This document shows, one piece after another, positions 480-64,000 of a stretch of DNA of 64,000 nucleotides. Below the pieces are notes generated by a model. It saw nothing but the letters and a program-made list of their open reading frames with translations, had not been told where the DNA came from and did no database searches. The position numbers and the translations under genes are program-made. Position 1 is the stretch's first letter. Every line of letters begins with the position of its first letter. The stretch is from Escherichia phage LQ5, in the sequence record OR677401; one strand, 5' to 3'.

Positions 480-1129
480 TGAATTACCAGAAAATATATT
501 CTTCATTAATTACACGTGCTCAAGGACGAGCACTATCCTGTTATACCGAATCTCATCATATTTTACCTAGATGTATGGGTGGAGGTGATGAATCTACAAA
601 CTTAGTTGATTTAACTCCTGAAGAACATTATTTAGCACATCAACTATTAGTTAAAATGCATCCAGGAAATCCTGGTTTAACTTTTGCAGCTATGACAATG
701 ACTCAAGGCCCTCGTCGTTCTAATAAGCTTTACGGCTGGCTTAAACGTAAGCATTCTGAGAATATCACGGCAACCCAAACAGGAAAGGTTTATTATAATA
801 ATGGCAAGAAGTGTATTAAGCTGTTTCCGGGTGAACCGGTTCCTGAAGGATTTGTAAAGGGCCGAGGATGGAGTCCTACAAAAGGAACCACTCATGATAG
901 GAATAATGGTCATTTTGCCAATAAAGAACTCCAAGCGGAGCTTTCTAAACGGAGATGGGATAAAGCCAGAAAGGAAACTTGTGAACAATTTGGTGTGGAT
1001 ACTATAGAAGAGGCCAAGGATATGGTTCGGGCATTTAAAGCTACATGCCACGAAAGATACTGGATAAAACCAACTATAGCCAAATGGCCTTTTATGACAC
1101 CAGTAAGACTACGTGAATTTATAAAATAA
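479..1129 (+). CDS. HNH homing endonuclease (Mob-like), free-standing
   Basis: ATG at 479 overlaps upstream stop; motif YTESHHILPRCMGGGDESTNLVDLTPEEHYLAH typical of phage HNH endonucleases; paralog of ORF 60287-60943. Confidence 0.8.
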   Translation: MNYQKIYSSLITRAQGRALSCYTESHHILPRCMGGGDESTNLVDLTPEEHYLAHQLLVKMHPGNPGLTFAAMTMTQGPRRSNKLYGWLKRKHSENITATQTGKVYYNNGKKCIKLFPGEPVPEGFVKGRGWSPTKGTTHDRNNGHFANKELQAELSKRRWDKARKETCEQFGVDTIEEAKDMVRAFKATCHERYWIKPTIAKWPFMTPVRLREFIK

Positions 1130-1211: not shown

Positions 1212-1802
1212 ATGAACGGTTTATTTAACCAAACTAACACTACTAACTTTATCTTAGAGGTTAGTGACGCAGGAATGACGCAGGCATTCAAATTGAACGT
1301 ACAAGATGTAACACTACCGGGTATCCATATTCCGGTCTCAGACGTCCCAGGATCGACCCAGGGCATACATCGTGCTAAGCTGCCAGGTTCTACTGTAGAA
1401 TTCGACCCATTGATTGTGAACTTTCTTGTGGACCGTGAATTGAAATCGTGGCTTGACGTTTATAAGTGGATGTTGTCATTAAACAACTATGTAACCCATG
1501 ATTCAGAAGCCTGGCATCCTAAAGGTCAACCGGAAGCTATCACCCTCCACATCCTTGATAACAACAAACAGAAAATCGTAATGAGCATTCATTACTACGG
1601 CGGTTGGCCATCCGACCTCTCGGAAATCCAGTACTCTTATAAAGAGGATTCTGACCCGGCGATTATCGCCACAGCAACATTCAACTTCAAATCGTTTGCT
1701 GTAGAAATAGATGGTACAATAGTTACAGGTCGTCCACAAATTGATTCGTATGCCGAACAACGAGTGGCTCGTATGTCTATGCATCCATCTATGAGAAAAT
1801 AA
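1212..1802 (+). CDS. tail completion/sheath stabiliser gp3-like (synteny only)
   Basis: 196-aa ORF immediately upstream of gp1 homolog, stop overlaps gp1 start; true start may be internal Met (MTQAFK). Confidence 0.45.
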   Translation: MNGLFNQTNTTNFILEVSDAGMTQAFKLNVQDVTLPGIHIPVSDVPGSTQGIHRAKLPGSTVEFDPLIVNFLVDRELKSWLDVYKWMLSLNNYVTHDSEAWHPKGQPEAITLHILDNNKQKIVMSIHYYGGWPSDLSEIQYSYKEDSDPAIIATATFNFKSFAVEIDGTIVTGRPQIDSYAEQRVARMSMHPSMRK

Positions 1803-2555
1803 TGAAACTAATATCAATTGTAGGAATCAAACGTAGCGGTAAGGATACCGTTGCTAACTATGTAATCGAAAATATGGATTCGGTAAAATTTCAGCTCGCA
1901 GGTCCTATTAAAAAGTATCTGGCTGAAGCCTATGAATACATCTCTGATGACCCTGTATTCGACCGTAGTTACATGCCTAAACTAGATTTTAACTGTTTTG
2001 AAGGTATCGGTTACGACCGTGAAGAAATCATTCCTTTAAAACCATATGATGTGATTGATATCTTTGAAAATGCTATTGTCAAACTGAATAATATCCTTCC
2101 TATTCCAGGAATGGATGTTCGTACCGCATATCATTATGGTCTTACCCCAGTCCAGTATCTGTCTGAAGAAACAAAAGACCAACTGTTTGAAGTAATAAAT
2201 AAAAATAACAATTGGTCAGTACGTCGTCTCATGCAGACCCTTGGGACTGATATTATTGTTAACCAATTTGATAAGATGTATTGGGTTAAGTTGTTCGCTT
2301 TAGACTATTTTGATAAAATATACTCTGATGCGAAATACTATGTCGTACCTGATGTTCGTCAAACACACGAAATTGATTCGCTCAGAGCGATGGGTGCTAC
2401 GATTATTCATGTAGTTCGCGCTGAAACCGGTCAAGTACAAGACTCGCACATCACTGAAGCGGGTCTACCAATTTTACCTGGTGACGTTGTTGTTGAAAAT
2501 AACGGCACTCTTTCTGAACTATACACTACTATTGATAAATTATTAGGAAATAAAA

Positions 2556-5172: not shown

Positions 5173-5246
5173 GGCCCTGTAGCTCAATTGGTTAGAGCAT
5201 CCGGCTCATAACTGGCAGGTTTCCGGTTCAAGTCCGGATGGGGCCA
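5173..5246 (+). tRNA. tRNA with CAT anticodon (Met-type gene; probably the AUA-reading Ile tRNA as in T4); no encoded CCA
   Basis: Hand-folded cloverleaf: acceptor GGCCCTG/TGGGGCC, D stem GCTC/GAGC, anticodon loop CTCATAA, T arm TCCGG-TTCAAGT-CCGGA. Confidence 0.75.
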
Positions 5247-5958: not shown

Positions 5959-6033
5959 GTCCCGCTGGTGTAATGGATAGCATACGATCCTTCTAAGTTT
6001 GCGGTCCTGGTTCGATCCCAGGGTGGGATACCA
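5959..6033 (+). tRNA. tRNA-Arg (anticodon TCT), CCA encoded
   Basis: Hand-folded: acceptor GTCCCGC/GTGGGAT, anticodon loop CTTCTAA, T arm CCTGG-TTCGATC-CCAGG, 3' ACCA. Confidence 0.8.
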
Positions 6034-14471: not shown

Positions 14472-14499
14472 TATAAATACCTCCTATACTCAGGAGGTA
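14472..14499 (+). promoter_or_regulatory. late promoter TATAAATA followed by hairpin ACCTCCT/AGGAGGT that sequesters the lysozyme RBS
   Basis: Same arrangement as T4 gene e, where early read-through transcripts are translationally silent. Confidence 0.6.
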
Positions 14500-14501
14500 T
14501 T

Positions 14502-14990
14502 ATGGATATTTTTGATATGTTACGTCAAGACGAAGGTCTTGATTTAAATCTTTATAAAGACACTGAAGGTTATTGGACTATTGGTATTGGCCAATTGATT
14601 ACTAAGAACCCTTCTAAAGATGTTGCTCGTGCTGAACTTGATAAGCTTATGGGTCGAGTTTGTAATGGTCGTATTACTATGGCTGAAGCCGAGCAACTCT
14701 TTAATCGATCGGTTGAAAATGCTCGTAGAGCTATTCTGCGTAATCCTAAATTGAAACCTGTTTATGATGTATTGGACGAAGTTCGTCGTTGTGCACTGAT
14801 TAATATGGTATTCCAAATGGGTGAAGCAGGTGTAGCAGGGTTCACTAACTCTTTACGTATGCTCCAACAGAAACGTTGGAACGATGCGGCAGTTAACCTG
14901 GCTCAATCCCGTTGGTATAAACAAACTCCTAATCGTGCTAAGCGTGTTATCGCCACCTTTAAAACCGGCACATGGGCTGCTTATAGATAA
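14502..14990 (+). CDS. e: lysozyme (endolysin)
   Basis: Strong match to recalled T4 lysozyme ([48 protein letters not shown]). Confidence 0.92.
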
Positions 14991-36274: not shown

Positions 36275-36832
36275 ATGACCGAAATTAAACTGACTAAAAA
36301 TAACTATGTAAATAATAAGGAGCTTCTGAAAGCTATCACCCAATGGAAAACAGAACTCAGAGAAAATACCGATCCTAATAAAATAGTTCGCCAGAACGAC
36401 GTTATCGGCTTGGCTATTATGCTCATTGCTGAAGGACTAAGTAAACGTTTCAACTTCTCAGGATATACCCAATCTTGGAAGCAAGAAATGATTGCTGATG
36501 GAATCGAAGCTTCGATTAAAGGTCTTCACAACTTCGACGAAACAAAATACGACAACCCACATGCATATATCACTATGGCTTGTTTTAATGCCTTCGTTCA
36601 GCGTATCAAAAAAGAACGTAAAGAAATGGCAAAGAAATATAGCTACTTCGTCCATAATGTCTATGACAGTAATGATGACGACATGGTAGGTATTGCAGAT
36701 GAAACCTTTATCCAAGATATCTACGACAAAATGACTCAGTATGAAACCTCTTTAACTAAAGCACCAGGGTCTGATAAGAGTGCCGAACCTAAAGTTGGTG
36801 AATTGGATTTTTTATATGGAACATCAGATTAA
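36275..36832 (+). CDS. 55: late-transcription sigma factor gp55
   Basis: 185 aa, very strong match to recalled T4 gp55 ([51 protein letters not shown]). Confidence 0.95.
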
Positions 36833-37543: not shown

Positions 37544-37601
37544 TAACGTGGACAGGTGGCTAATGAAAGACGAATACGAAAAAGTTTAAGAGGTTGTATG
37601 A

Positions 37602-37775
37602 ATGACGAATTCGATGGATTTTGATAAGATTAAATCTGACAAAAACGAGATGATACTTCAATTTGAAGCCGCTCGTATTAAAGCAGAAAATGAAGGTACT
37701 ATTACCTATAAGCCTATCAAGTTCAGGTCTAATCACGAACCTCTGTACGGTGTATTAGTTGGTAAAGGAGCTTAG
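37602..37775 (+). CDS. small ORF (57 aa)
   Basis: ATG 37602 after AAGAGG; stop inside terminator loop; below ORF-track cutoff. Confidence 0.4.
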   Translation: MTNSMDFDKIKSDKNEMILQFEAARIKAENEGTITYKPIKFRSNHEPLYGVLVGKGA

Positions 37776-37786
37776 GCTCCTTTTTT
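37767..37786 (+). terminator. intrinsic terminator GGAGC-TTAG-GCTCC + T6
   Basis: Read directly. Confidence 0.7.
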
Positions 37787-37809
37787 GCTTTCTAAACGGA
37801 TGATAAAAT
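37786..37809 (+). promoter_or_regulatory. MotA-type middle promoter (TGCTT box, 13 nt, TAAAAT)
   Basis: TGCTT at 37786-37790, -10 TAAAAT at 37804-37809; same spacing as promoter at 60257. Confidence 0.45.
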
Positions 37810-37815
37810 AAATCT

Positions 37816-42491: not shown

Positions 42492-42515
42492 TTTTTGACT
42501 TGATAAGGAAACATT

Positions 42516-43214
42516 ATGAAATTCTCTAAAGAAACTCTGAACATTCTGAAAAACTTCTCCAGTATTAACCCAGGTATCATGCTTAAGCCTGGTAACACTA
42601 TTCTAACTCGTTCAGTAACGGGTGCAAGTTATGGTGAAGCTACTGTAAGCGATACCTTTGATATCGAAGCCGCAATCTATGATTTGAACGGCTTCTTAAG
42701 TATTCTGTCATTGGTATCTGATAGTGCTGAAGTTTCGGTAAGTGAAGACCAAACCACCTTAATTATTAAAGACCAACGTTCAACTATTAAATGGCCTATT
42801 GCCGACCCAAGTACAATTGCATTCCCAAGCAAAGCTATTCCATTCCCGGTGGCTGAAGTTATTTTTGACCTTAAAGCCGAAGATTACCAACAGTTGATGC
42901 GTGTGTCCTCTGGATTGAGTATTGATACATTTGCTATCACTGTAGACAACGGTAAAATTGTAATCAATGGCTACAAACAAGTTGATGATAAGGACCTGGC
43001 ACGTCCATTGTATTCCTTAGTGGTTGCAGACCATGATGGTCCTGAATTCAAATTCATTATCAACAAAACCAATATGAAAATGATGCCTGCTGATTACCAT
43101 GTATTGCTATGGGCTCGTGGTGAAGGTCAGGATGCTCGTTTCGCAGCCAAGTTTGAAGGTTCACAAGCTTCTTATGTATTGGCTATGGAAGCAGGCTCAA
43201 GCCACTCGTTCTAA
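42516..43214 (+). CDS. 45: sliding clamp gp45
   Basis: 232 aa; strong match to recalled T4 gp45 (INPGIMLK.G, TIKWPIADPSTIAFP, KFIINKTNMKMMPADY). Confidence 0.95.
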   Translation: MKFSKETLNILKNFSSINPGIMLKPGNTILTRSVTGASYGEATVSDTFDIEAAIYDLNGFLSILSLVSDSAEVSVSEDQTTLIIKDQRSTIKWPIADPSTIAFPSKAIPFPVAEVIFDLKAEDYQQLMRVSSGLSIDTFAITVDNGKIVINGYKQVDDKDLARPLYSLVVADHDGPEFKFIINKTNMKMMPADYHVLLWARGEGQDARFAAKFEGSQASYVLAMEAGSSHSF

Positions 43215-58616: not shown

Positions 58617-58782
58617 GATTTCTGTATTCGAATTATTCGAAGAGTATGAAATCGTATCAAAGGACCAAGAAGCTATCCATATTATTGCCGGTGATGGTGT
58701 GACTTGGATTATTCCACTTTACCACGAAGATACGTACGAAGTCACTGATGCAAATGGTGATAAAGCTATTTTCGTAATATAA
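58591..58782 (+). CDS. hypothetical acidic protein
   Basis: ATG 58591 after GAAGGGAA; ORF-track start 58573 is TTG. Confidence 0.4.
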   Translation: MSAMCTGSKISVFELFEEYEIVSKDQEAIHIIAGDGVTWIIPLYHEDTYEVTDANGDKAIFVI

Positions 58783-58785
58783 ATA
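58778..58785 (+). promoter_or_regulatory. T4-type late promoter TATAAATA
   Basis: Exact octamer 14 nt upstream of small ORF 58799. Confidence 0.45.
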
Positions 58786-58798
58786 AGGCCAGGAGCCT

Positions 58799-58960
58799 AT
58801 GAAATCTTTTAAAGAAGTTATGAACGAAGATATGGTCGCAGGCGATGCAGGTGGAAACCCATCTAATATTGCCTCCGGAACTACCTCAGGCGCAGTCGTC
58901 AACAAAGGGCCTGAACAAATCCCATCTAAAAAGCGTAAAGAAAAATCCGAAAACGAATGA
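58799..58960 (+). CDS. small Gly/Ser-rich basic protein (53 aa)
   Basis: ATG after AGGAGCC; late promoter upstream; below ORF-track cutoff. Confidence 0.45.
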   Translation: MKSFKEVMNEDMVAGDAGGNPSNIASGTTSGAVVNKGPEQIPSKKRKEKSENE

Positions 58961-58998: not shown

Positions 58999-60027
58999 AT
59001 GTCATATGTCGATAGAGAATTTGCTGTACGTGCCTTGAATTACCAACCTAAATTCAGACAAGTAACCGGTAGTGATTTTAAATTAAACTGCCGTTGTCGT
59101 GTATGTGGCGACTCCCTAAAAGATGAAAACAAAGCTCGTTTTTGGGCCTATCCGGCCAATGACGGCTCCGTAATGCTGCACTGTTTTAACTGTGACTATT
59201 CAGCAGGAATTAAGAAGTATCTATACGAATATGAGCCTGATTTATATCGAGAATATATTCTTGAGAAACATAAAGAGCAATCGTTCGGGAGACAAGCTGC
59301 ACCTAAGGTGGAGATATCAGAAAAGATTAAAGCCAAGATGCCTGTCATCGAAAAGCTTAATTTCTGTGAACGTCTGGATAGAATGCCAAAGGACCATCCT
59401 ATTATCAAATATGTAACACTACGTTGCATTCCTGAAAACAAATGGAATCGCTTATGGTTTACTAAAGAATGGCCGGCATTGGTGAACTCTGTCAATCCAG
59501 GGACCTATTCTAAAGAAATGCCTGAGCCTCGTTTGGTTATTCCAATTTTCAATAAGAATAAACAAATTGAAAGTTTTCAGGGTCGAGCCTTACGTAAAGA
59601 TGCTCCACAAAAATATATTACAATAAAAGCTCATGACCAAGCTACAAAAATATATGGAATGGATACAGTTGACGAACGTCAGTTGGTGTGGGTAATGGAA
59701 GGCCCTATTGACTCTTTGTTTGTTCCGAATGCAATAGCAATTACTGGCGGGTCGTTGGACTTGGCTATGGTTCCATGTAAAGAAACTCGTGCCTGGGTAA
59801 TGGACAATGAACCCCGCCATCCTGACACAATTAAGCGTATGCAACGATTAGTTGATGCTGGCGAAAGGGTTCTATTCTGGGACAAGGCTCCATGGCCTTC
59901 TAAAGATATAAATGATATGATTATGAAAGATAAAGCTGATATAAATGATGTACTGGCATATATGAAAGCTAATATAGCCCAAGGTTTAATGGCAAAAATG
60001 AGACTTTCAAAATATTCTAAAATTTAG
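58999..60027 (+). CDS. 61: DNA primase gp61
   Basis: 342 aa; zinc ribbon CRCRVCGD ... CFNC, and PRLVIPI, EGPIDSLF, DNEPRHPDTIKRM blocks matching recalled T4 gp61. Confidence 0.92.
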   Translation: MSYVDREFAVRALNYQPKFRQVTGSDFKLNCRCRVCGDSLKDENKARFWAYPANDGSVMLHCFNCDYSAGIKKYLYEYEPDLYREYILEKHKEQSFGRQAAPKVEISEKIKAKMPVIEKLNFCERLDRMPKDHPIIKYVTLRCIPENKWNRLWFTKEWPALVNSVNPGTYSKEMPEPRLVIPIFNKNKQIESFQGRALRKDAPQKYITIKAHDQATKIYGMDTVDERQLVWVMEGPIDSLFVPNAIAITGGSLDLAMVPCKETRAWVMDNEPRHPDTIKRMQRLVDAGERVLFWDKAPWPSKDINDMIMKDKADINDVLAYMKANIAQGLMAKMRLSKYSKI

Positions 60028-60224
60028 GCAGGAACTCCGCTAAAGAATCCAATTATGCTTAATACGTGTTCCATTGTAACCGCTGGTAAAATTATCCCTT
60101 GGCTAGCGGCTACAGGGACTACTAGAAGATTCCAAAGGAATACGTCTAGCGCAAGAAAACCTAACATCATTTTCTTGTCTTTCTTTTCGGCCAATTTCCA
60201 GATTTGGTAAAAAATACTGCCCAT
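60024..60224 (-). CDS. antisense small membrane protein (66 aa)
   Basis: Only convincing minus-strand gene: AGGAGG 5 nt before ATG; T4-type late promoter TATAAATA upstream on minus strand. Confidence 0.55.
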   Translation of the reverse strand: MGSIFYQIWKLAEKKDKKMMLGFLALDVFLWNLLVVPVAASQGIILPAVTMEHVLSIIGFFSGVPA

Positions 60225-60245
60225 GTTATCCTCCTGTTAAATTAA

Positions 60246-60253
60246 TATTTATA
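60246..60253 (-). promoter_or_regulatory. T4-type late promoter TATAAATA (minus strand)
   Basis: Reverse complement of TATTTATA at 60246-60253, ~20 nt upstream of minus-strand gene. Confidence 0.5.
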
Positions 60254-60254
60254 A

Positions 60255-60281
60255 CTTGCTTTACAAATTAATGATACAATT
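60255..60281 (+). promoter_or_regulatory. MotA-type middle promoter (TGCTT box, 13 nt, TACAAT)
   Basis: TGCTT at 60257-60261, -10 TACAAT at 60275-60280. Confidence 0.45.
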
Positions 60282-60286
60282 ATCCC

Positions 60287-60943
60287 ATGAATTACGAAAA
60301 AATATACCAGGAATTAATATCTAAAGGAAAATTAAGAGGTTCTAAGCGGTCTTTATCATATTATACGGAAGAACACCATGTTATACCTAGATGTATGAAT
60401 GGTTCTGATGATAAAAACAATTTAGTTGCTTTATTGCCAAGAGAACACTTTGTAGCTCATAGGCTTTTAACAAAAATATATCCCGAAGTAAAAGGTCTAC
60501 ATTATGCTGTTAATTTAATGAGATATAATAAAGGAGTTAAATTAACTAGTAGAACTATAGCCACGTTAAGAGAAAATAACGCTAAAGCATTTTCAGGAAA
60601 AAATAACCCGATGTTTGGTAAACCTTCCTGGATTAGAGGGATGAAAACTCCTGAAGAAACTAAAGCCAAAATGCGCCTGGCTCATAAAGATAAAATTATA
60701 TCTGATGAAGCCAAGGCCAATATGAGTAAAGCTAGAAAAGGAAGATTTAGTGGTAAAGATTCCCCTAGATATGGTTTACCGAATCCTAGGCGTGGAGAAA
60801 TATGGAATAGTTACGATATGCTTTACGAATTATGGGTTTACAATAATAAACCTAAACGCACCAAATTTAATAAAATAGCTGTTGATAATGGATATCCTGA
60901 TATTTGTTATCGACGAATGATAGAAAACTTTAATAGGAAATAA
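60287..60943 (+). CDS. HNH homing endonuclease (Mob-like), free-standing
   Basis: YTEEHHVIPRCMNGSDDKNNLVALLPREHFVAH; paralog of 479-1129. Confidence 0.8.
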   Translation: MNYEKIYQELISKGKLRGSKRSLSYYTEEHHVIPRCMNGSDDKNNLVALLPREHFVAHRLLTKIYPEVKGLHYAVNLMRYNKGVKLTSRTIATLRENNAKAFSGKNNPMFGKPSWIRGMKTPEETKAKMRLAHKDKIISDEAKANMSKARKGRFSGKDSPRYGLPNPRRGEIWNSYDMLYELWVYNNKPKRTKFNKIAVDNGYPDICYRRMIENFNRK

Positions 60944-61471: not shown

Positions 61472-61479
61472 TATAAATA
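61472..61479 (+). promoter_or_regulatory. T4-type late promoter TATAAATA upstream of soc
   Basis: Exact octamer ~30 nt before soc ATG. Confidence 0.5.
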
Positions 61480-61510: not shown

Positions 61511-61744
61511 ATGGGTGGTTTCGTTAATATTAAAACCTTTACGCATCCGGCTGGTGAAGGTAAAGAAGTTAAAGGTGTTGAAGTATCTGTCCCGTTTGAA
61601 ATCTATTCAAACGAGCATCGTATTGCGAATGCACACTATCAGACATTTCCTTCTGAAAAGGCGGCATACACTACTGTAGTAACTGATGCAGCCGATTGGC
61701 GAACTAAGAACGCGGCGATGTTTACGCCTACCCCAGTAGTTTAA
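61511..61744 (+). CDS. soc: small outer capsid protein Soc
   Basis: 77 aa; VNIKTF ... AHYQTFPSEKAAY matching recalled T4 Soc. Confidence 0.8.
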   Translation: MGGFVNIKTFTHPAGEGKEVKGVEVSVPFEIYSNEHRIANAHYQTFPSEKAAYTTVVTDAADWRTKNAAMFTPTPVV

Positions 61745-63392: not shown

Positions 63393-63394
63393 AG

Positions 63395-63445
63395 TTTTAC
63401 ACCTCCTCCCTTCATGTTATAATGACCTCTAAATCACTGGAGGTC
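63395..63445 (+). promoter_or_regulatory. promoter (TTTTACA-N-TATAAT) with downstream hairpin GACCTC/GAGGTC covering the RBS
   Basis: Read directly. Confidence 0.5.
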
Positions 63446-63447
63446 AT

Positions 63448-64000
63448 ATGAACATCGAACAAAAATGTCTTTATCAAGACCGAATCAATTCCAAATTCTC
63501 AAAACACGAACAGAATCTTTTAGAAAAATGTCTGGATGCTAAAAAAGACCCTAACTTCCATTACGACCTTGACAAACTGGTTCGCAAGCATGTTACTTCA
63601 GCGGTTCCAGTAGAGTTGTATCGTGGGATTACCACCAGAGAACTTGAGCAATTAGAGCTCCTTTCAGTAGGGTGTCAATGGTCTCCTGGTCGAGTTACTT
63701 CTTTTAGTACACAATACTCACAGGCTCGTCAGTTCGCAGGGGCATGGGAATATGGAACCAGAACCATTTTAAGTCTCAGGAATGCACCGTTCATTTTCGA
63801 CTACTATAACCATGCTATCGACCTTGTTCTTGCAGGGAATGTAGATGAGCTTGAAATAGATGAAACCCGTATAGACCTCTACGATATGGTCGAAACTGAA
63901 TGTGAGTTCATGGTCTCCAGCCAATCACGATTTGAGATTGTGGAAATCGAAACTATCAAAAGGGACCCGTACGAAATCGAGTACAAAACAATTCATTTAA
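63448..64000 (+). CDS. Mod-type ADP-ribosyltransferase, 3'-truncated by window end
   Basis: R-S-ExE arrangement (YRG ... SFSTQ ... ECEFM); position after soc as T4 modB/modA; no stop in window. Confidence 0.55.
   Translation, partial: MNIEQKCLYQDRINSKFSKHEQNLLEKCLDAKKDPNFHYDLDKLVRKHVTSAVPVELYRGITTRELEQLELLSVGCQWSPGRVTSFSTQYSQARQFAGAWEYGTRTILSLRNAPFIFDYYNHAIDLVLAGNVDELEIDETRIDLYDMVETECEFMVSSQSRFEIVEIETIKRDPYEIEYKTIHL

Follow-up and report, generated by a model that had tools for sequence, protein, structure and literature searches.

In bacteriophage T4, the early and middle transcripts all have the same polarity, while the late transcripts may have either (PMC2988020), so that a gene that lies on the strand opposite to that of the early genes can only be late. 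A T4 late promoter consists of a box that is located about one helical turn upstream of the transcription start, and it does not need any -35 element; 32 of the 50 promoters listed are perfect, nine have an A at position -13, which is the commonest natural variant, and the rest have single deviations, bar two exceptions, one of which is a TA-to-AT change (PMC2988020). In the case of the T4 lysozyme gene e, the ribosome-binding site is masked in the early read-through RNA and accessible in the late transcript (PMC3014915). Here we examine a stretch of 64,000 nucleotides from Escherichia phage LQ5 (sequence record OR677401), referred to as the window, whose minus strand carries, tail to tail with the DNA primase gene 61, a short open reading frame (ORF) that codes for a hydrophobic protein of 66 residues. 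Our analysis suggests that this ORF is very probably a genuine late gene of the T-even type, the Dhakavirus member of the phrog_2024/Dam.1 family, which is the overall best explanation of the locus.

The record of T4T (HM137666) names the T4 homologue "dam.1, hypothetical protein" (ADJ39749.1). It is an ORF of 66 codons (NC_000866.4, 17738..17938, plus strand) located between dam and 61, downstream of GATAAATA and AGGAGG. T4T Dam.1 and the protein of the window belong to the same length class (60-74 amino acids, aa), and the two genes have in common their position, their strand, the overlap of the stop codons, the succession of promoter, Shine-Dalgarno (SD) sequence and ATG, and the core motif of the product. 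They differ in subtype: Dam.1 is of the T4 type, whereas the protein of the window is of the JS98 type, and the two types are only about 20% identical overall (40% over a core of 25 residues).

An earlier note on the window, made from its letters, had described a minus-strand ORF of 66 aa, a perfect AGGAGG 5 nt before its ATG, an exact late promoter about 20 nt further upstream, and a stop codon overlapping that of gene 61. All these elements are present, at the following positions.

60024..60224, minus strand: small ORF, with an ATG, 66 codons and a TAA, product MGSIFYQIWKLAEKKDKKMMLGFLALDVFLWNLLVVPVAASQGIILPAVTMEHVLSIIGFFSGVPA; Dhakavirus member of the Dam.1/phrog_2024 family.
60246..60253, minus strand: T4-type late promoter box TATAAATA, -10 element for the gp55-RNA polymerase; exact match to the consensus.
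60238..60240, minus strand: predicted transcription start, which leaves a 5' leader of about 15 nt; placed from the distance of about one helical turn between box and start (PMC2988020).
60230..60235, minus strand: SD sequence AGGAGG, read from the sequence, 5 nt before the ATG.
60225..60229, minus strand: spacer ATAAC (5 nt) between AGGAGG and the ATG.
60222..60224, minus strand: ATG start codon of the small ORF, read from the sequence.
60024..60027, both strands: interlocked stop codons, TAA of the small gene (60026..60024, minus) and TAG of gene 61 (60025..60027, plus), read from the sequence.

The distance given for the promoter was a fair estimate, since TATAAATA is 10 nt from AGGAGG and the first bases of the two elements are 18 nt apart. 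The description of the gene as a lone antisense gene also holds: it is the only minus-strand ORF of at least 40 aa that has an ATG, an SD sequence and a location in a gap between plus-strand ORFs, and the minus strand has no exact copy of TATAAATA in the window other than that at 60253..60246. In phage VR5, a close relative with a careful annotation, two stretches were examined that amount to about 56 kb and are syntenic with most of the window; the features listed there likewise share one strand, except for the small ORF, which is annotated as gp029.

Evidence that the ORF is a gene comes from codon alignments, on which we counted differences according to Nei and Gojobori. Between genera, the proportion of synonymous differences (pS) is 0.7-0.8, which is saturation, versus 0.13-0.32 for nonsynonymous differences (pN); the ratio of nonsynonymous to synonymous rates (dN/dS) is 0.06-0.19 within the JS98 type and 0.1-0.5 within the T4 type. 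From these comparisons it is virtually certain that the small ORF is a real protein-coding gene under purifying selection. Between the window and Klebsiella phage Marfa, the small protein is 76% identical and gp61 68%; judged on sequence identity, the small protein is, within its subtype, about as conserved as its essential neighbour gp61. A plus-strand ORF of 51 aa in the same gap (60055..60210) was considered and rejected, since T4 lacks an equivalent (the early-strand ORFs of its gap have 20-28 aa) and since the substitutions fit the minus-strand frame.

Both subtypes share the core W-N-x4-P-x-A-x3-G-x3-P-x-(V/I)-(T/P)-x-(E/D). In a cross-subtype alignment of 24 sequences, W31 and P37 are invariant and conservation reaches at least 90% at N32, A39, G43 and P47, N32 being replaced (by Asp) in one member only. 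In the Gapriverviruses VR26 and VR25, both subtypes are found in tandem on the antisense strand, which indicates that they are paralogs and not simple orthologs. In the coordinates of the stretches examined, the tandem copies are at 1495..1692 and 1701..1901 in VR26, at 1295..1492 and about 1500..1699 in VR7 (or VR20), and at 701..876 and 896..1093 in NC-G. On this evidence the T4 type and the JS98 type are two old paralogous subtypes.

The earlier note had proposed to look for the ORF and its promoter in related phages and had considered that disruption of the ORF in close relatives would speak against a gene. Both are kept across genera of Tevenvirinae, and the disruptions that we saw are restricted to genomes in which a second, intact paralog is adjacent: in VR7 (or VR20), a nonsense codon and a frameshift interrupt the JS98-type copy and the T4-type copy is intact, and in NC-G, a frameshift affects the JS98-type copy, which is followed by an intact copy of the T4/Mosigvirus type. 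That disruption occurs only where another copy remains argues for a function with redundancy, rather than against a function.

Regarding the distribution of the family, the window is, by sequence similarity, from a Dhakavirus (a JS98-like relative of T4, among the Tevenvirinae), as are E33 and QL01: the region of the locus is 99.8% identical to Escherichia phage vB_EcoM-E33, and QL01 is 100% identical over the initial 753 bases of the query, which reach as far as the insertion of mobE. The small protein matches phrog_2024 (E=5.8e-28, residues 1-64 on positions 1-64 of the 65 of the profile), and identical proteins are deposited in NCBI under AKU42685.1, AND75701.1, UKH48973.1 and WEY10168.1, each of them as "hypothetical protein". 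The JS98 type is found by tblastn in 138 phage records, the T4-type protein is in 698, and other subtypes are in hundreds more, from phages of Klebsiella, Salmonella, Enterobacter, Citrobacter, Edwardsiella and Pectobacterium. The reading frame has stayed intact in hundreds of genomes, which represent at least 10 genera. Profiles were also run against large protein collections: an exhaustive search of 1.84 billion representatives returned 8 clusters only, and one of 5.8 billion proteins returned 109 short homologues (41-74 aa), among which all the members whose source is named are hypothetical proteins of T4-like phages or of enterobacterial assemblies. The profile, which was made from relatives, also picks up the T4 type and other subtypes. 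Neither search returned a relative outside T4-like phage contigs, and the family appears to be confined to enterobacterial Tevenvirinae.

The position of the gene is the same in the window, T4/T4T, VR5, JS10, VR26, Q7622, PM2, CIP9, PEi20, Moon, p000v and NC-G: on the opposite strand, tail to tail with gene 61, between the latter and dam/56. The tail-to-tail arrangement with gene 61 recurs in many hundreds of records of enterobacterial Tevenvirinae. The overlap of 4 nt between the two genes is also found in T4, VR5, JS10, VR26, CIP9, Moon and p000v, and it amounts to 21-24 nt in PM2 and Q7622. The gene has thus been catalogued before (many records list a hypothetical protein, T4T has it as dam.1, and the family is phrog_2024) and is not a new kind of element. 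Some members of the family bear other names, such as "Holin" (UniProt, phage OE5505), "dCTP pyrophosphatase" or "DNA packaging ATPase", which are probably annotation artefacts, either labels of neighbouring genes or automated guesses. In the literature on dam.1, on T4 late and antisense transcription, on ribosome profiling and unannotated ORFs of T4, on CRISPRi-ART and on HIDEN-SEQ, we found no mention of the small gene. We note that the reference T4 records show a 309-bp "intergenic" gap from dam to gene 61 at the site of the homologue, and that the exact sequence of the T4 homologue is present in a protein collection without an NCBI accession.

That the gene is late, as the earlier note had it, is a prediction from sequence, which is supported by the conservation of the position of the promoter box. 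We compared 13 gene copies, from Dhaka-, Tequatro-, Mosig-, Gapriver-, Gelderland-, Kanagawa-, Moon- and Mosugukvirus and from Klebsiella phages. A box containing TAAATA is present 5-12 nt before GGAG in 12 out of 12 intact lineages, and also in the pseudogenised copy of NC-G, in the forms TATAAATA, AATAAATA, GATAAATA, CATAAATA and ATTAAATA (that is, T, A, G or C followed by ATAAATA, or ATTAAATA), while the sequence that flanks the box is not conserved among these lineages. The sequence GGAG(G), 3-7 nt before the ATG, is conserved in all of them. The perfect TATAAATA is limited to the phage of the window and a few relatives; the form seen in the nearest relatives that lack mobE is the A(-13) variant. 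Genes for the late sigma factor gp55 and for the clamp gp45 are present in the window. A search for a sigma-70 promoter that would allow early expression from the minus strand gave only a weak match (9/12), at chance frequency. Taken with the polarity of T4 transcripts, the conserved box gives us good confidence that the small gene is expressed late.

The composite signal ATAAATA-N8-16-AGGAGG-N4-9-ATG matches twice in the window, versus 0 times in 100 shuffles. One match is that of the small ORF; the second precedes the ORF 14502..14990, the homologue of the T4 lysozyme gene e, and, as e is a classic late gene, can be regarded as an internal positive control. Here TATAAATA is followed by CCTCCT...AGGAGG (14472..14504, plus strand), as in the arrangement described for T4 gene e. 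Like the small gene, e and soc are small late genes among early genes, with a late box shortly upstream of a strong SD sequence. They differ from it in that they are on the strand of the early genes, and e needs a hairpin that sequesters the SD sequence against early read-through RNA. The small gene, being on the opposite strand, needs no such masking, and indeed its predicted leader, folded with the start region, shows no structure (-1.4 kcal/mol, z +1.15).

The product had been described as a small hydrophobic membrane protein. Hydropathy and an AlphaFold2 model (from a 25-sequence alignment, mean pLDDT 75) agree on one clear segment of transmembrane (TM) grade, around residues 19-41, the 25 C-terminal residues being weaker. 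The protein can be divided as follows.

60171..60224, minus strand: residues 1-18, basic amphipathic N-terminal segment with a net charge of +3, predicted to be cytoplasmic; hydrophobic moment 1.38 per residue, AlphaFold2 helix 2-11.
60102..60170, minus strand: residues 19-41, predicted TM helix with W31, N32 and P37; best 19-residue window on both hydropathy scales.
60027..60101, minus strand: residues 42-66, turn and tail G43-x3-P47-x-V-T-x-E52, then a short hydrophobic helix; predicted to be periplasmic or interfacial, or alternatively a weak second span.

In the model, helix 2-11 is followed by a helix 14-41, continuous and with a pLDDT of 83-86, a loop 42-50 and a helix 51-62. The N-terminal net charge is positive in all the subtypes examined (+2 to +7), so that the N-terminus is predicted by the positive-inside rule to face the cytoplasm. 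Residues 44-66, although hydrophobic, include prolines and the conserved E52/H53 (D/D in T4), and the insertion energies sum to 5-14 kcal/mol for the C-terminal segment versus 0.8-3.6 for the first helix. Based on these predictions, it is highly probable that the small protein is a membrane protein; a single-pass topology, with the N-terminus inside and the C-terminus outside, is somewhat favoured, and a two-helix hairpin is the less favoured candidate.

T4 has several membrane-anchored proteins that control envelope events, namely the antiholin RI, the holin T, the i-spanin PseT.3 and Imm, some of which have their N-terminus inside and their C-terminus in the periplasm. We detected no sequence similarity of the small protein to any of these or to any other characterised family; the globular periplasmic domains of RI, T and the spanin are far longer than its tail of about 25 residues, and Imm and Sp, unlike the small protein, are encoded by early genes of the other strand. 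Judging by its anatomy, the small protein most plausibly works like the regulators of the AcrZ, MgtR and KdpF type, which also have fewer than 70 aa, a single TM helix, conserved polar or aromatic residues in this helix and no enzymatic domain. These proteins are not homologous to it, and differ from it in that it is encoded by a phage and predicted to be late.

The following mechanism can be proposed. After DNA replication has started, the gp55/gp33/gp45-RNA polymerase would initiate about 6 nt downstream of TATAAATA and produce an mRNA with a short leader, which would be translated efficiently. The product would enter the inner membrane with its N-terminus in the cytoplasm, the helix ~19-41 spanning the bilayer and the tail of about 25 residues being periplasmic or interfacial. 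There it would most likely serve as an accessory subunit, contacting a larger membrane protein via the W-N...P face of its helix and the G-x3-P-x-V-T-x-E tail. Instead of making holes by itself, it may take part in a late step at the cell envelope, for example in lysis timing or lysis inhibition. The unterminated transcript would also enter gene 61 in the antisense direction, probably as a side effect, although it could help silence leftover primase mRNA. The accessory role in the envelope or in lysis, which is deduced from anatomy, is the tentative part of this scheme. Still more tentatively, the gene may be an unrecognised late component of T-even phages, either a membrane partner that tunes the holin T/antiholin RI clock or another envelope step, or a dual locus acting as mRNA-antisense and as protein.

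Several observations weigh against the reading of the locus as a late gene for an envelope protein. The small ORF is not annotated in the reference T4 records NC_000866.4 and AF158101.6, nor in the original 1984 sequence X01416, and it is also left out of the annotations of JS98, JS10 and IME08. By itself, TATAAATA is not above chance in the window (6 matches on both strands, versus 7.1 +/- 2.3 in dinucleotide-preserving shuffles). The closest Dhakaviruses without mobE, and most close relatives, have the weaker-looking AATAAATA. Sequence searches of Pfam, NCBIfam and PDB gave nothing significant, whether the query was the protein of the window or a set of 24 diverse members (for the protein of the window, Pfam and NCBIfam gave no match even at E<=10), and a Foldseek search of the AlphaFold2 model against viral predicted structures returned family members only; as no similarity to a characterised family or structure was found, the functional step is drawn only from anatomy. 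The C-terminal segment could be a second span, which would place both ends of the protein in the cytoplasm. Last, to our knowledge, decades of hunts for amber, temperature-sensitive and rapid-lysis mutants of T4 have assigned no locus here, and this speaks against the gene being essential or having a strong role in lysis inhibition.

Among the alternatives, the one that survives best, while still being doubtful, takes up this second span: the protein would be a two-helix hairpin with both termini in the cytoplasm, and would serve another late membrane process, such as the initiation of the prohead or the blocking of a membrane-bound abortive-infection effector. The hydrophobic stretch 19-66 is long enough, with the tight conserved turn S/T-x-G (41-43), to form a hairpin, and the restriction of the family to enterobacterial Tevenvirinae, with its ancient paralogs, duplication and loss, is typical of accessory genes for interaction with the host. 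On the contrary, the insertion energies given above and the conserved acidic, His or Pro residues make the second segment a poor span (in the members from Kanagawavirus and Moonvirus it contains PP, E, H and R), AlphaFold2 shows in it only a helix of 12 residues, which is too short to cross a bilayer, and we found no link to head assembly or defence systems, either by context or by homology.

The convergent arrangement with gene 61 calls for another alternative, in which the locus mainly makes a late antisense RNA that shuts off the primase gene, the ORF being secondary. The tail-to-tail overlap is kept in many genera, which favours this view, and so does the absence of a terminator or stable structure after the stop in the window: our scan of the minus strand from 60024 to 58800 found no terminator-like site, and the 70 nt that follow the stop of the small gene fold no better than shuffled sequences (z -0.01), so that the transcript should extend antisense into gene 61. 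Geometry and structure are thus in line with the convergent transcription predicted by the earlier note. However, an RNA-only function leaves unexplained the strong purifying selection on the protein with saturated synonymous sites, the SD sequence and the ATG are conserved in all the lineages compared, and read-through is not universally kept: in NC-G, the small gene and gene 61 do not overlap, and between them (about 1091..1121, plus strand of the stretch examined) is a hairpin (-14 kcal/mol, z -4.0) followed by UAUUUU. This hairpin, which our simple terminator scan did not flag, looks like a terminator, possibly bidirectional, that is absent from the window. Since the frame is under selection and NC-G has this hairpin and U-run, it is unlikely that antisense transcription is the main purpose of the locus, and we consider the corresponding reading improbable; an antisense effect may be a by-product of the expression of a late protein-coding gene.

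Equally improbable is the idea that the protein is a holin or a pinholin-like hole-former, a second lysis effector beside the T4-type holin T. It is small, embedded in the membrane and probably late; the member of the family from OE5505 is named "Holin" in UniProt, a label with no cited test, and two members give faint matches to PF11351 (GTA_holin_3TM), the best at E=0.08. But no holin profile is matched significantly, and faint matches in 2 of 24 relatives are about what chance gives for 24 proteins at E<=10; the label is not supported, the same protein being called elsewhere a dCTP pyrophosphatase or a packaging ATPase. The charged cytoplasmic C-terminal domain is missing, the C-terminus being hydrophobic (...GFFSGVPA) and the charges N-terminal, and the lysozyme gene e is unlinked, 45 kb away at 14502. 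We also know of no rapid-lysis screen that has reached this locus, and these phages already have holin T.

A type I toxin-like peptide (Hok/TisB type), the translation of which would be blocked by mRNA structure and by an antitoxin RNA overlapping it in antisense, does not fit: the start region is unstructured (z as above) and, apart from two tRNAs, a search of the window for Rfam families and separate small-RNA signals found none. As to a chance ORF in an intergenic spacer, for which one could invoke the omission of the frame by the early curators of T4, JS98, JS10 and IME08 and the expectation of TATAAATA alone in AT-rich DNA, the comparative sequence data have already refuted it, with a frame kept intact across genera despite saturated synonymous change, a conserved spacing of promoter, SD sequence and ATG, and a composite signal that the shuffles never produced.

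The small gene of the window is surrounded, or presumably served, by the following genes.

58999..60027, plus strand: gene 61, DNA primase, convergent neighbour; primase annotation in relatives, 62% identity to T4 gp61.
60287..60943, plus strand: MobE-like HNH homing endonuclease, context only; mobE annotation in IME08 and VR5.
36275..36829, plus strand: gene 55, late sigma factor, acting in trans on TATAAATA; tblastn, 100% identity to IME08 gp55.
42513..43211: gp45 clamp gene.

The mobE gene is present in the phage of the window, E33, IME08, VR5 and a few others, and absent from JS98, JS10, QL01 and WG01, all four of which still keep the small gene and its promoter. The insertion abuts the late promoter, with mobE lying 33 nt upstream of the box. 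In the window, E33 and IME08, the box begins with T, and in the phages without mobE with A; VR5 has mobE and yet an A. Back to back with the late box, at 60256..60280 (plus strand), we observed TTGCTTTA, 11 nt and TACAAT, an arrangement that we take to resemble a middle promoter with a MotA box; it ends 6 nt before the ATG of mobE (60287), which is not preceded by an SD sequence. A similar GCTTTA...TATAAT is found upstream of gene 56 in the relatives that lack mobE.

Elsewhere in the window, further exact copies of TATAAATA are found on the plus strand at 58778..58785, just upstream of the 61.1 homologue (58799..58960) and within a small hairpin, and at 61472..61479, upstream of soc (61511..61744). 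The two tRNA genes (Met-CAT and Arg-TCT) are given at 5173..5246 and 5959..6033, and several stretches of 270-600 bp, such as 37544..37815 and 63393..64000, have no plus-strand ORF of at least 60 aa.

Our result confirms a gene that was catalogued as hypothetical, rather than revealing a new type of element. T4 is among the best-studied viruses, and yet its reference records NC_000866.4 and AF158101.6 do not have this gene, so that studies that use reference coordinates, such as the CRISPRi-ART library, which was made for annotated coding sequences, will not have measured it. For the T4-like genomes considered in phage therapy against Klebsiella, E. coli, Salmonella and Enterobacter, it is one more conserved membrane protein, which would be of practical relevance if it affects lysis timing, host range or the evasion of defence. 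Last, the locus offers a clean natural case in which to ask whether a replication gene that is expressed early is shut off by late transcription converging on it.

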